Virus genome (UHGV): UHGV-0355397 | DNA: 16,014 nucleotides | Reading direction: 5' to 3' (one strand) | Source: a virus | Shown here: positions 6,001 to 12,000 of the stretch, piece by piece | Layout of the letters: each line of letters begins with the position of its first letter | How positions within the stretch are numbered: the first letter of the stretch is position 1 | Program-made: the position numbers

Positions 6001-9000
6001 CCTTTTTTAGTATCCAACAGTCTGAACTGCCCCTGACCCAGATGAAGATGATTGAAGTTCCATGGTGTAATAACCATTAAGTGGCTCACCTTCCCAATCA
6101 AGGTTAATGCGTAATACATGGCCATATTTGGTTGCATTTGACTGGGCGATAAACCCTCCAGGCTTATCTATATCTCTCTGTGGCATCCCAGAATATACCT
6201 GATTTGCAGTATATGCCTTATCAACAGCAGGAGCGCCAATAGAGGCGGTAATTTTAGGCCACGTTCCGGAGCTGTGCAGAACATCTACAGCATACCCGGT
6301 AAGCCCGGTTGATGTTCTCCTGATCAAACATTCAATATACCCACTCCCATGAGATCCGCCAATCGACTTGATAATCAGTTTTGCAGTACCGCAATCCCAT
6401 GGATTTAAAGTCTGATCCCAACATTCAGCCTTTAGGCCGCTAGGCATAGGAAAATCCACGCTGGTTAACACTGCCTCACCTGGCCATACTCCTCCCACAA
6501 CTATTGGACTCGGTATCCTGACACTCAATGTTTCTAAATATCCTCTTCCCCATCCATTATTTGTTTGTCTGGCAAGGTGCTCGTAAATTGGCCTTATTGT
6601 CAAAGCCTGAATAAACGCTGGCTTGGATGCTGACGCATCTGCTGCGTTATAAATACTGATAGTTTTCCATCCCCTACCAATCAGCGTACCAATACGCTTT
6701 TGCAAGGCATCAGAGTGATTATTAGATCCACGATTTCGTGCTACAGTAACAGTGCTCTGAATTGCGTTATAGTTTGTTTGCACAAAACTATTTTGCTCGG
6801 CGAAAGCATAGTATGAAACCCCTATAGAGGGAGGGACCTCCTGTGGTTCAGAGAAGCAAAATGACAAATTAGAGTCATCCAGCCAGCTACCAACAACATC
6901 AACTTCTGCTGCCTCTGCATCAAGATAGAAACTGTATGACGTTCTAACATATTTTCCAGCATCAAACCCACCAATGATGCCTTGAAGCGTATATGTCTCG
7001 TAACCAAATCCCATTGTTACATTGTCAAAAGCATCAAAAAAACCAATCTGATCGCTCTGTTTGTATGGCCATACCGTTATTTCTGTAGATACTGGTCTAT
7101 AAAACGGAAGCATTCCTCCGGCCATCATCATTGAACCAATTGCTTCAGCTATTCGTTGATATCCGACAGAGTTGAAGTGAATTGGATCTGATGCGATAGA
7201 ACCATATGGGATATTGTATGGTATTTCATTTGCTTCGATATATGCACAACCATATACATGAGCTAAATTTCTGATTTCCTGCCCCCAAATTTGGAACTGT
7301 TGAATATTACCATGCTGCTCATTACCACCTGCAACTGGCTGAAGAATAATAACCCCCATCCCCCAATCAATGAATCTACGAATGAACTTCTCCATATACG
7401 TTAAATACACGTCTATCGTGGTTGATGTAGAGTCATTTATCGCATACATAATAATTGCAACATCACAATTAGGATTATCCTGCCATGCTAAATATTCAAA
7501 TCCTTGTTGTGCTGTCTGCCCGGATACTGCTCTAGTGATACTTGTTACATTCCCACCGGTACAGATAGAAAGGTATCTTGCGAGCCTTTCTGGATAGGTT
7601 ACATTAGCACGACGCGTTAACCCTGTTCCGTTTGCATCTGTTGAGTTAGGATCCCAACCAAAAGTCTCACTATCTCCCTGACAAAGGATCGATAATCCAG
7701 ACTTTTTACGAAGATTGAAGTGAGCCTTGGTAAGAGCCTGAATATTTCTGTTTCTATAATCAGCGCTATCTGATGCCAAAGTAGCGTTGCCAAGATTTGT
7801 AATGTGCTCTTGAACAGTCTTCCCATCATCAGTTCCGATTAATAAAGATCCTCCTGATCCAGACAGTTCCTGTCGCAGTTGATCTGGATCATATTTAATT
7901 ACATTAGGGTAATAAAATTGCAAACCACCAACAGCATCATACACCGCCATCGAATGGCCTTTCACAGTAACAAACTTGGCAATCTGTCCGTTATATACAG
8001 GGTAACCAGCAGCGTTAATGATGATTGGTTGCGAAACAGGAACGTGAGAACCATCCTCATTATCCACATAAACCTGAATCTGGTTTTCAGGATTTACAGG
8101 GTCAGTGTCAATTTTACCGATATAAATTTTGCCATTGGCAACCGCTTTAAAAGAACGCGCCATAGTGAAAAGTTGCGAAGGCATCGATACGATCACATTG
8201 GCTGTAATGTCTGTCATTTAATTTGCTCCAGATACAAGGAATCGCCGCAGAGTGGCTACGGTTGGTGTTTGTTGCATACCGAAACGGTACGATTGTTGAT
8301 TTGTACAGTAGGTTTTACGATGCCATTCCACCCAACTGGTGAGGCATCAAGGATGTACAGCAAATACGACGAGGCGCAGTTTCACTTGAGACTTCCGCAT
8401 GAACTTCACGCGAAAATTAAGCAGCGTGCGAAGATGAATAACAGGTCGCTGAACTCAGAGATAATTGCAGCGATTGAAGAATCATTGGCTAAACAAAGCT
8501 CTGCATCCGGTTACATTGACGATGCAGAGCGTATGGCAGAACAACAATCCGATATGGTAAAGAAAATTGTCTTTGATACGTTCAGAGATTTATATAAAAA
8601 AGACAGCAACTAACCATCCGTGTCTTTCCGTTACTTCTGGTTATCATCACTGTTCATCCAGTACATGATGCCTAGCCTTGATATGGTTTTCTTATCTGAT
8701 TCTGGAAGTGAGTTGTAAAACGAGCGCCAAGCAGAAGAGCGTCTTACAGTTGTATCAACGATGCTTTCTGGTGCTTGTTTTACTGCCAGCCTTGCTGCTT
8801 TCTGGAATTCTGGTGAGCTAATTAGCTTTTCTGCAGATTCAATTGATTCAGCGCCGCCCATCGCCCTGATTTTGCTGGCGACTTTTGCCCCAATTTCTGA
8901 CCCAGCAACAGCACCTACTGCACTGAACGGTCCTGACACAGTTGAACCAACCGCAGTGCCAATGCGTTGGGCATGGTTAGCAACAAATTCATTTGCCACA

Positions 9001-12000
9001 GTGACGCGATTAAACCGTTTGACGAACTCGTTTAGTCTTCCTGTAGTTATCTCGTAAGATTTTGCATCTTTGATAGCCTTTGCGACCTTATATACATCGT
9101 TCAGACCTGACATAGTCTCTTTTGGTAAATGTTGGGCAAGATTGCGCATCTGCCCGTTTGCTAACATGTTTTGATACCAGTCAGCAAACCCTGCAGGATT
9201 AAAATCAGCGCCACGTTTTCCGTTCGAAAGCATATCCCGGAGACCTGTCCCCAGTAGCTCGGTTCTTAGCTTCCTGGACGGCGTGTTTTGCATCAATTCA
9301 CGAAATCCTTTGGCATCGCCTTTCGACATTGCCTGTAGTGCTGTAGTTGCTTTGCGAGAAACATCACCGTTCAGCGTTCTGCCAGTTAGATTAATCATTT
9401 GCTCTTCCATGCTTTTTCGCATCTGAACAAGCCTCTGAGCAACTTCAAAATCACGTAATGCATTTGTCTCTGACAGCGCCGCCTTTTGATCATCGGCGAG
9501 CGAACCGTAAAGCCTCGATAAAGCAGCGCGATCAGCATCTTTATATGGTCCAGACTTCTTATGAAGTGCATCACCAACAAGTCGTCGTTGCTTATTGAGA
9601 TTTGCATAAGTTAATGCGCCGTTCTTGCCTGGATTAACTGCCCGAAAGACTCTCTTTTCAATAGGGTCAAGGTTTTTCATCCCGCCAAGATCTTCTGCCA
9701 CCTGTTTGAGCATTGACCTTGTTGATGGCGCATCAATTTTTGCACCTGCAGGCATCGCCTTTTCAACATTGCGATAAAGCTGGTCGCTTCGTTTCATCAG
9801 CGCAGACATTCTTCCATTGATCGTATCAATAAACTTGTCGCTCATACCAAGAGCATCTTTTGCACCGGAAACGCGATCAATTATCTCCCCCGCGCCCTGT
9901 GCTAGTTGCCTGATTGCTTCATTTTCCTGCACCCGTAGAGCAGAACCCGCACGGGACTTGATTGCTTGCTCAACTGCCTTGTATTGCTCGTTCCCGGAAA
10001 AGTGTGAAGGGAGTAATGAATCAACATTAAGCCTTTCAGCAGACTCCAGAACTTCAGCCTGAGGATTGATATCTAGTTCATCAAGCGATGAAGCGAGATT
10101 TGGCCTTTTTTGTGCTGCTACTGTGCGAACGACCTCCTCTGGGTCCCTCGCCGCAGGCGTCATTGGTACACCTTGTGCTGCTCTTGCCTCTGCGGCATGA
10201 ACCGCAGGATTTGTTGCTGCAGCGGCATCACCGGAGAATGGTGATGTTTCTGTTGGCGCAGTACCGGAGAATGGTGATGTTTCTGTTGGCGCAGTGGTCG
10301 CTCTCTGTGCAGATGTTTTATTGCCACTAATTATATTTGATGCACCACGAACACCACGGGTAACGCCATTTATCAGGCCATGCGTAGCAATGTTAAGTCC
10401 GGCATTAATAGCGGCATTTTCGGCAAAATCACCCCGTTGATTCGCCGCGTCAGCGAGAGAACCAATGACCATGTTTCCAGCTACTCCTGCTCCAGGAACA
10501 AGATAACCGCCTATTGACTCTCCAGCTTGCGCATAAGGGTCTGTCGGTCGATCTACTGGACGATAGACATCGTCCAAAACCTTGGGGCCACCAAGCCCCT
10601 GGCTGATTGCATTAATCAGACTTGCGCCACCCTGCAATACGTCAAATGGTATGTTTACCAGACCACGACCAGCCTGCTCTGCAATTTGCCCTGCACTTTG
10701 ACCACCTGTGAGCCAATCGCCAGCTTGTTGCATCAATGATGGTTCTTCACGTGCTGGTTCATTATTGGCCTGATTAACTGTTTGTTGCTGAACAGGTTTC
10801 GGTGCGACAGAACTTACGGGTTGAGGTGGCTGCTGACTGGCTGCCTGCTGCTCAATCTGAGCAAATGGATTATTTGGGTCTGACTGCACACCTGATGCCG
10901 ATACTTGTTCGGATGACTGTGCTTCCAGTTGTGCAAACGGGTTGTTAGGGTCTTGCTGAGGATGTACCTTTGCAGAGGTGGCGCGCTGTTCGACTGTTGA
11001 GTCTGTCACCGGGTCACCCGCCCATTGAGCAAAGCGATCATCAACGTAACCGCGGCCTTCAGGTCCTGGCGTATATTCACCACGCTTTGCCTTCATAACG
11101 TTGCCGGGACCGTCGTGATAAGCCTGAAGAGCATCACGCCAGTTACCAAACTGCTGGTACATCTTTGCCAGATAGCGCGCGCCAGCGTCAGCCTGATATT
11201 CGGGGTTTTGCATTTGCTCATCGGTATAACCCATATCACGCCATGTCCCAGGCATGACCTGAGTCAATCCTACAGCCCCGGCGGAGCTTACTGCGGCAGG
11301 GTTGTAAGAAGACTCCTTGGCACCCAGTGCAGTCATCAACCCTTCTGGCACACCGTAACGTGCGCCAGCCTGCTCTAACAAATCACGGTAATTAGCCATT
11401 TACTGCCCCAAAGATGGAAGATATCCGTAGCGATTAATGAAGTCGATTGACAGCTCGGGGTGCTGCTTCAGGTAATCTATAGAAGCCTGAGGCGCTTCCA
11501 CTCGCTTGATACCGTTTTGCTGAACGTACTTACCAACCGCCTCATTACGCTTCTGGTTGAGCGTGTTCAGGATGACGCCAGCGTTGCGACGAAAGGACTC
11601 CTCGCTCTGCGAGTTCTGCAGCGAACCAACAGCCTGGTCGAGCTTTTTGCCCTCGGCATCAGAAAGTGCGCCCATGCCTCGCATGGCCTGAACCGCTGTC
11701 AGGTATGCTTGGGATTTAAAGGTATCAAGTCGTGCCTGAGTGTCTGCAGCCTGTGAGCCTGGAACGTTGGGGATTACTCCACGTAAGCCTGTAATGCTCT
11801 TAAGTGAAGGAGAACTAACGATATCGTTCAGAGTGAACATGCTGGTTGTGAGGGTGTTGATGCCGTCTTTGTAGCCATCATTTAGCGCTTGCTGCTTCTG
11901 CTGCAACTGCTGGTTGTTGGCTGCTATGCGGCTCTGTATTTCCTGGCGCTTCAGGTCGTTAGTTTCTGCTGATAGCATCCGGTCAAGGCGCTTATTTTCG

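Follow-up and report, generated by a model that had tools for sequence, protein, structure and literature searches.

An SLT lytic transglycosylase domain on the gp16-type ejection protein of an Sf101-type P22-like phage, a probable wall-cutting cassette in a mosaic gene

Does a P22-like phage carry a wall-cutting enzyme on one of the proteins that it ejects into its host? The question is raised by the UHGV virus genome UHGV-0355397, of which we analysed a whole stretch of 16,014 nucleotides (the window), where a 922-amino-acid protein is encoded at the gp16 position. From the sequence alone, an initial annotation had described this protein as carrying an N-terminal SLT domain with a catalytic-Glu motif, followed by a long low-complexity region, and had read it as an ejection protein with a peptidoglycan-cleaving activity like that of T7 gp16. 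Our analysis confirms the observation and supports the interpretation, with two corrections that concern the extent of the low complexity and the novelty of the feature. The protein is probably a gp16-type ejection protein of an Sf101-type P22-like temperate podophage, built from modules, with an SLT domain that would cut murein during ejection.

The Pfam SLT profile (PF01464) matches residues 7-110 with E=3.4e-25 and 88.3 bits against a gathering cut-off of 21.3, and the motifs by which the domain had been recognised fall within positions 11097-11315, inside the interval of 11010-11399 proposed for it. When compared by HMMER with PDB sequences, residues 4-102 align with residues 453-560 of E. 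coli Slt70. This alignment is gapless from residue 4 (opposite residue 453) through residue 53, so that Glu29 corresponds to the catalytic E478, and the expected glutamate is therefore in place. Glu29 also stands opposite Glu37 of T7 gp16 in a BLASTP alignment. Glu37 is presumably the catalytic residue of T7 gp16, as Moak and Molineux are said to have reported in 2000. The predicted structure of the domain has a goose-lysozyme-like all-alpha fold that superposes on active enzymes at 2.1-2.7 A, and its structural matches include MltC, MltF and the phage lysins phi6 P5 and phiKZ gp144. On this evidence from sequence and modelling, the 922-residue protein has a real family-1 lytic transglycosylase domain of the Slt70/MltC/MltE type, which by homology would cleave peptidoglycan.

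Relatives were drawn from a search of 5.8 billion proteins that returned 1590, and representative sequences were inspected. Glu29 is invariant in all 17 SLT-bearing gp16 homologues that we aligned, whose overall identity to the window protein falls from nearly complete to 40%. The same set retains the E-S, G-L-x-Q and A-Y-x-x-G motifs, the sole departures being those of P0035 (G-Y-A-Q and G-Y, at positions L45 and A93), and this conservation argues against a decayed relic. It bears directly on the alternative that the domain is inactive or vestigial, either a passenger of recombination or a peptidoglycan-binding anchor or spacer for the channel. Such a reading could draw on the fact that SLT-less alleles are frequent, with an identity of 93-98% in the shared part, that P22 and Sf6 do without the domain, and that the loop just after the catalytic Glu (residues 32-42) is modelled at low confidence. 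However, the motifs, the Pfam score and the superposition on active enzymes all point the other way, and the architecture persists in distant genera, implying purifying selection on an enzyme. We therefore consider an inactive domain unlikely.

The identity of the remainder of the protein was approached through its gene neighbourhood and its relatives. The open reading frame begins with an ATG immediately after the TAA that ends the gp20 homologue, a protein that is 43% identical to P22 gp20 over the N-terminal 263 residues. With the neighbours assigned by Pfam and PHROG, the frame is flanked by gp10, gp26, gp14, gp7 and gp20 genes upstream and by Mnt and tailspike genes downstream, and acyltransferase, IS256-family transposase and integrase genes follow further downstream of the tailspike. 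The order of genes in this virion module agrees with that of P22, Sf6 and Sf101, which places the 922-residue protein at the gp16 position, as had been proposed. A bacterial, non-phage SLT gene was ruled out, given the absence of a signal peptide and the location of the gene within a P22-type virion module.

BLASTP aligned residues 221-353 with residues 53-189 of P22 gp16 (609 residues, the length given in the initial annotation) at 81% identity (E=1e-67) and found nothing significant against P22 gp16 outside residues 221-353. The C-terminal ~420 residues of P22 gp16 have no BLASTP similarity to the C-terminal 480 residues of the window protein, and the relation between the two is visible only at profile level. 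P22 gp16 matches phrog_770 end to end (E=2.3e-266), the whole window protein matches it at E=2.6e-160, and the C-terminal 533 residues of the window protein alone match its positions 221-651 (E=1.3e-64), so that the window protein is a member of the gp16 family with a divergent type of C-terminal domain. In two related E. coli prophages, the gene at this position is named 'P22-gp16 family phage DNA ejection protein' by the Prokaryotic Genome Annotation Pipeline (PGAP). Close homologues of the window protein carry a precomputed match to PF26808, perhaps the gp16 model. No gp16 model in NCBIfam matches the window protein or P22 gp16, the search having returned only sub-threshold SLT-family models, and the Pfam copy that we searched, which lacks PF26808, gave no model for the non-SLT part of the window protein. 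Gene position, the 133-residue module in common with P22 and the C-terminal profile match together bear out the proposed ejection protein.

The cysteine content of the module was also examined. There are no cysteines in gp16, gp20 or gp26 and one in gp7, at residue 18, which falls in the 20-residue leader that P22 cleaves off; the non-ejected gp14, gp10 and tailspike have 4-8. The ejected set would thus be cysteine-free in its mature form, consistent with passage in an unfolded state. For the window protein, the absence of both cysteine and a signal peptide lends indirect support to its presumed packaging in the capsid and release into the cell envelope.

A different placement of the enzyme would make it an external tail-associated lysin or an end-of-infection lysis protein rather than an internal, ejected one. 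The best PHROG match of the protein, phrog_21143, is labelled 'lytic tail fiber protein', the RefSeq name of Sf101 gp13 is identical, and SLT domains are found on tape-measure or tail proteins in many phages. The PHROG label is, however, an automatic family name, and the gene lies exactly where gene 16 is expected, behind gp7 and gp20, with both the 81%-identical module and the profile-level C-terminal domain in common with P22 gp16. The latter is internal and ends in the cell envelope, while the P22-like tail is made up of gp4, gp10, gp26 and gp9, with no room for such a protein (bioRxiv 10.64898/2026.09.03.749273). The distant Ralstonia phage RSK1 has holin, endolysin and spanin genes annotated in a cassette of their own beside the homologous gene. 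A tail lysin or lysis protein is extremely unlikely in our judgement, and we retain the ejection protein. The features of the gene and its neighbours are collected in Table 1.

Table 1. Parts of the gp16-type gene and neighbouring genes in the window
Feature	Position (nucleotides)	Strand	Description
gp16-type ejection protein gene	8631..11399	-	ATG-to-stop open reading frame, 922 amino acids, 98.6 kDa
SLT (family-1 lytic transglycosylase) domain, residues 1-130	11010..11399	-	Pfam match at residues 7-110, nucleotides 11070-11381
Glu29 codon, predicted catalytic acid of the E-S motif	11313..11315	-	Aligns with Slt70 E478
ESSYNP motif, residues 29-34	11298-11315	-	
Second motif, residues 44-53	11241-11270	-	10 residues, including GLTQ at residues 44-47
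AYHDGPGNV motif, residues 93-101	11097-11123	-	AYHDG at residues 93-97
Exchangeable module A, residues 1-201	10797..11399	-	SLT domain and most of the Q/P-rich linker
Linker 1, residues 131-220	10740..11009	-	Acidic, Q/P/A/S-rich, low-complexity, predicted disordered
Two DPNNPFAQ copies in linker 1	10929-10952 and 10857-10880	-	
Module B, residues 221-353	10341..10739	-	Gly/Ala-rich, moderately hydrophobic; common to P22 gp16
Linker 2, residues 354-442	10074..10340	-	A/T/S/P-rich, predicted disordered
Module D, residues 443-922	8634..10073	-	Basic (isoelectric point 9.7), all-alpha C-terminal domain; gp16-family core
Small-xxx-small (Gly/Ala/Ser) segment, residues 810-847	8859..8972	-	From hydropathy and motif scan
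gp20 homologue, periplasmic-tube ejection protein	11400-12731	-	443 amino acids; PF16928, E=6.3e-68
gp7 homologue, ejection protein	12741-13433	-	230 amino acids; PF25688, E=1.8e-134
gp14 gene	13436-13894	-	DUF2824
Sf6-type tail needle gp26 gene	13891-14739	-	PF16532
gp10 gene	14739-15995, runs off the window	-	PF11134; same strand as the gp16-type gene
Mnt/Arc repressor gene	8350-8613	+	Downstream of the gp16-type gene
Tailspike gene	6007-8217	-	Downstream; P22 head-binding domain

Composition, entropy and the structure model divide the protein into five parts, and the description of a long low-complexity region after the SLT domain has to be revised on this basis. That region is mostly structured and conserved, with low complexity confined to the two linkers at residues ~131-220 and ~354-442, about 180 of the 922 residues. 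Linker 2 contains a perfect tandem repeat of 33 nucleotides in two copies at 10230-10295 (residues 369-390, an 11-residue unit twice, 100% match in Tandem Repeats Finder). Sf101 has one copy of it, P0004 duplicates AAATNPAVH instead and other alleles vary here as well, a variation that suggests slippage in a length-tolerant linker. Module B holds two of the three most hydrophobic 19-residue stretches in the hydropathy profile (residues 247-265 and 300-318), and an alternative version of this module is present in P0001 and P0088. Residues 443-785 of module D are modelled at a predicted local distance difference test score of about 80-94. A solved-structure search with module D gave no significant match; by homology, the module is presumed to be the cytoplasmic-membrane part of the DNA channel. 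The small-xxx-small segment sits about 75-110 residues before the C-terminus, and three of its glycines (G829, G833 and G837) are nearly invariant in the homologue alignment; we infer that it is a candidate membrane-inserting or subunit-packing element. The highest Kyte-Doolittle mean over 19 residues in the whole protein is 1.2, which leaves no classical transmembrane helix but Gly/Ala-rich segments at residues 247-265, 300-318 and 810-847. P22 gp16 is likewise reported to have no strong transmembrane helix (bioRxiv 10.64898/2026.09.03.749273).

The SLT domain does not belong to all members of the family, and its boundary can be placed precisely. A recombination breakpoint lies at 10796/10797, within the sequence that encodes KPVQQQ. 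The SLT-less gene of E. coli PK8217 is 99.8% identical in nucleotide sequence to the window up to 10795, where the megablast match ends; the DNA alignment has no similarity 5' of the breakpoint in the gene and near-identity 3' of it. At the protein level, P0002 (754 residues) is 98% identical from 'VQQQTV...' on and has a P22-type N-terminus of about 33 residues, while P0004 and P0013 (767-777 residues) have a third type of about 75 residues; these three SLT-less proteins share 77-80% of the protein, over which they show the identity of 93-98% mentioned above. P22 gp16 itself has a short N-terminus in place of the 201-residue SLT cassette. No match to the SLT profile was found in P22 gp16, Sf6 gp16 (665 residues), P0002 or P0004, whereas Huey CDS13, Lumpael gp43, P0088 and T7 gp16 all have one. 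The cassette also occurs in other combinations: P0001 joins it to the alternative Gly-rich module and a C-terminal domain as in the window protein, and in P0088 (797 residues) it precedes that alternative module and a C-terminal domain of the P22 type, with 35% identity to P22 gp16 over 481 residues (E=9e-77). To judge from these alignments, the SLT module is a swappable cassette in a mosaic gp16-type gene. Intragenic mosaic modules of these ejection genes are said to have been described in 2011 by Casjens and Thuman-Commike, whose work is cited to that effect.

P0059 and P0060 (960-969 residues) have an N-terminal extension of ~43 residues (MDVTLPSGRVIQGVPEGTPKATIQ...) ahead of the SLT domain, which by eye looks like the short P22-type N-terminus (residues 1-33 of P22 gp16). 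If this likeness holds, the SLT domain can be inserted behind a P22-type element as well as take its place.

The cassette is more widespread than the gene that carries it here. Of 5426 complete E. coli genomes, 70 contain nucleotides 10785-11399 at an identity of at least 99%, but the full-length gp16-type gene is present in only 14 genomes. Among collected phages, residues 1-134 are 100% identical in Sf101, APC_JM3.2, IME10, Huey, Dewey and the Klebsiella phage phiKp_30. About 162 records of the collection have a gp7 homologue and about 30 an SLT domain of this type (57-100% identity), a fraction that is only rough since both counts include RefSeq and GenBank duplicates.

The presence of the cassette in 70 E. 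coli genomes but of the full-length gene in only 14 suggests recent recombinational spread, and it could be taken to mean that the main value of the cassette lies in escape from SieA-like superinfection exclusion or from envelope defences, by changing the route of gp16 to the inner membrane. Few genes of P22-like phages vary as much as genes 16 and 20, and SieA escape maps to gp16 and gp20, but the escape mutations are in the C-terminal regions of both proteins and not at the N-terminus (PMC10883804). The cassette, moreover, encodes an intact predicted enzyme with conserved catalytic motifs, and no data tie SLT domains to exclusion systems. Exclusion escape as its main value is thus very unlikely, and we return to wall cutting.

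More distant phages have the same design. Murrayvirus Lumpael gp43 (1008 residues) and the proteins of Skarpretter (Skarprettervirus), IME_EC2, Sortsne and Kosakonia phages combine an SLT domain with a C-terminal domain as in the window protein; these proteins of lytic enterobacterial podophages have ~1000 residues and are about 33% identical overall and 57-67% identical within the SLT domain. The Lumpael gene lies behind homologues of gp4, gp10, the needle, gp7 and gp20. ORF16 of the Ralstonia Firingavirus RSK1 (1280 residues) also lies behind gp7-like and gp20-like genes, with an N-terminal SLT match that is marginal (23 bits against the cut-off of 21.3) and similarity to the window protein in the C-terminal domain only (32%). 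A Foldseek search with the whole protein against the viral models of BFVD gave 50 matches at E<=1e-3, several named LT_GEWL, one Peptidase M15B and one 'injection protein'. The Peptidase M15B match is A0A6J5KPX8, a 792-residue uncultured-phage protein (E=2.4e-6 over 792 alignment columns), and this modelled likeness hints that another peptidoglycan hydrolase can sit on the same ejection-protein scaffold.

It is possible, though we put it forward only tentatively and with more doubt than belief, that the N-terminus of P22-type gp16 is a general 'cargo slot' for periplasm-acting domains. The SLT form would then be ancestral and widespread (Murrayvirus, Firingavirus, T7), the forms of P22, Sf6, HK620 and CUS-3 would be secondary losses, and the near-clonal cassette would recently have been passing between prophages of E. 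coli, Shigella and Klebsiella, with host wall or growth state as the selective force. At least three unrelated heads (SLT, the ~33-residue P22 type and the ~75-residue type) are spliced at the KPVQQQ joint to proteins that are otherwise almost the same, and more remote relatives have LT_GEWL or Peptidase M15B domains on an apparently similar scaffold.

How the enzyme would act can be proposed from what is known of P22 and T7. Once ejected, P22 gp7, gp20 and gp16 form a ~50 nm channel, in which gp16 alone spans the cytoplasmic membrane; the ejection of gp16 probably precedes that of gp20, and gp16 is able to diffuse within the periplasm (bioRxiv 10.64898/2026.09.03.749273). P22 gp16 also binds membranes in vitro, and its C-terminal region is the site of SieA escape mutations (PMC10883804). 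The functional model for an enzyme on such a protein is T7 gp16, which cuts the wall at the start of infection and then takes part in forming the channel across the cytoplasmic membrane, its N-terminal transglycosylase being required for genome entry only if the peptidoglycan is highly cross-linked (PMC8954989). By analogy, about 6-12 copies of the window protein would be packaged in the capsid, as for P22 gp16, and at adsorption would be expelled, largely unfolded, through the portal and tail channel, arriving in the periplasm probably ahead of the assembly of the gp20 tube. There the SLT domain would refold, tethered by about 90 disordered residues, and cut bonds between N-acetylmuramic acid and N-acetylglucosamine (MurNAc-GlcNAc) locally, with Glu29 as the acid. 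The widened murein mesh would let the gp20 periplasmic tube pass, and the Gly-rich and C-terminal parts would join the cytoplasmic membrane to complete the DNA channel. The T7 analogy suggests that the enzyme is probably accessory rather than essential and that it would be most useful with highly cross-linked peptidoglycan, such as that of cold or stationary-phase cells. An accessory role fits the existence of near-identical natural alleles without the SLT domain.

Several points weigh against this account of a wall-cutting ejection protein. Homology is the basis on which packaging, ejection and muralytic activity are proposed for the window protein, as for Sf101 gp13. Infection proceeds well in P22, Sf6 and many close relatives that have no SLT domain, and the contribution of the domain may therefore be small or conditional. 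The muralytic activity of the P22 virion was reportedly assigned to gp4 by Moak and Molineux in 2004; if so, an SLT domain could be redundant. Both the ejection order and the oligomeric state are carried over from P22 to a protein whose C-terminal domain has no BLASTP similarity to that of P22 gp16, and the active-site loop of the SLT domain (residues 32-42), both linkers and residues 786-852 are poorly modelled.

Other genes of the window were also annotated. The tailspike combines the P22 head-binding domain (residues 1-113) with an SGNH/GDSL esterase-type domain (residues ~178-360), which suggests a receptor-modifying spike of the O-antigen deacetylase type. It is adjoined by an Acyl_transf_3 gene (4820-5983, plus strand) in a stretch of low G+C content (37-38% vs about 50%), a kind of gene that is annotated as O-antigen acetyltransferase in Sf101 and Sf6. 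The pairing is odd, in that a conversion gene for adding acetyl groups stands beside a spike that probably removes them in one and the same phage. Between the integrase (1862-3052) and acyltransferase genes is an IS256/Mutator-family transposase gene (3355-4563, minus strand; PF00872, E=1.1e-119), for which neither Sf101 nor the prophage of E. coli FDN-24 has an annotated counterpart at the equivalent site. Of the E. coli prophages that extend to the integrase side, the three with the best match are similar to the window only from 1722, immediately upstream of the gene for the IntS-type integrase, to its end. Positions 1-1721 encode a DUF551 protein (19-873) and small open reading frames, like the early-left region of a phage, and a search of the window for tRNA genes found none. 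Its source may be a phage-form or rearranged genome, with the attachment site near 1700-1860.

The SLT domain at this position is already known at the level of annotation and is ordinary for the Sf101 subgroup. GenBank has given the product of Sf101 gp13 as 'transglycosylase' since 2014, and PGAP names the E. coli copies 'lytic transglycosylase domain-containing protein'. The automatic names in RefSeq and PHROG are misleading: 'lytic tail fiber protein' is the label for the ejection protein both in NC_027398 (Sf101, 9001-11736) and in phrog_21143, and in RefSeq the label 'head morphogenesis' is given to P22 gp16 and 'partition protein ATPase' to the Mnt repressor. The Sf101 paper terms ORF11-13 'injection' proteins and leaves the SLT domain unmentioned. 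We found no paper that discusses an SLT domain on a P22-like gp16 in a literature search that left outside its reach the two likeliest sources for gp16 sequence types, Casjens and Thuman-Commike 2011 and Casjens and Grose 2016. One review states that the SLT domain is absent from P22-like phages, which is too broad, since Sf101-type Lederbergvirus, Hueyvirus-type phages and many E. coli prophages carry it.

The practical value of these results is modest and they overturn nothing in the current understanding, but they correct a generalisation in the ejection-protein literature. They also provide a natural near-isogenic pair, the window gene and the PK8217/P0002-type gene, which are 98% identical after the breakpoint. 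The P22 system accepts foreign ejection protein genes (PMC10883804), and with this pair of alleles it could test when a virion wall-cutting enzyme matters for a short-tailed phage. The module map marks the joints at which ejection proteins tolerate domain exchange and could be useful for engineering delivered cargo.

Compared with known systems, the likeness to T7 gp16 proposed in the initial annotation is upheld for the N-terminus only. T7 gp16 (internal virion protein D, 1318 residues) exceeds the other two ejected proteins in size and carries its SLT domain right at the N-terminus (Pfam E=1.7e-31), 28% identical to that of the window protein over 130 residues (E=1e-8); BLASTP found no similarity to T7 gp16 outside the SLT domain, its gp15-binding 'molecular tape' and C-terminal hub included. 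T7 gp16 is part of an ordered stack in the virion core and forms a large cytoplasmic hub, whereas P22-like ejection proteins are unstacked (PMC8954989). Its family is that of Autographiviridae, unlike the window phage, and by its sequence the window protein resembles T7 gp16 in N-terminal design but is not a member of the T7 gp16/Autographiviridae family. The closest known systems are Sf101 and Escherichia phage APC_JM3.2. The tailspikes of the window and Sf101 differ (736 residues with the SGNH domain and 580 residues, respectively), as do the needle genes, but the two share gp7, gp20, the Mnt/Arc-type repressor, a tailspike, the O-antigen acyltransferase and the integrase as neighbours. Sf101 gp13 (YP_009153087; KJ832078) has the same module order as the window protein and is 98% identical to it over the full length, with about 10 substitutions and a sole gap, the second copy of the 11-residue repeat, which accounts for the 922 residues here and the 911 in Sf101.

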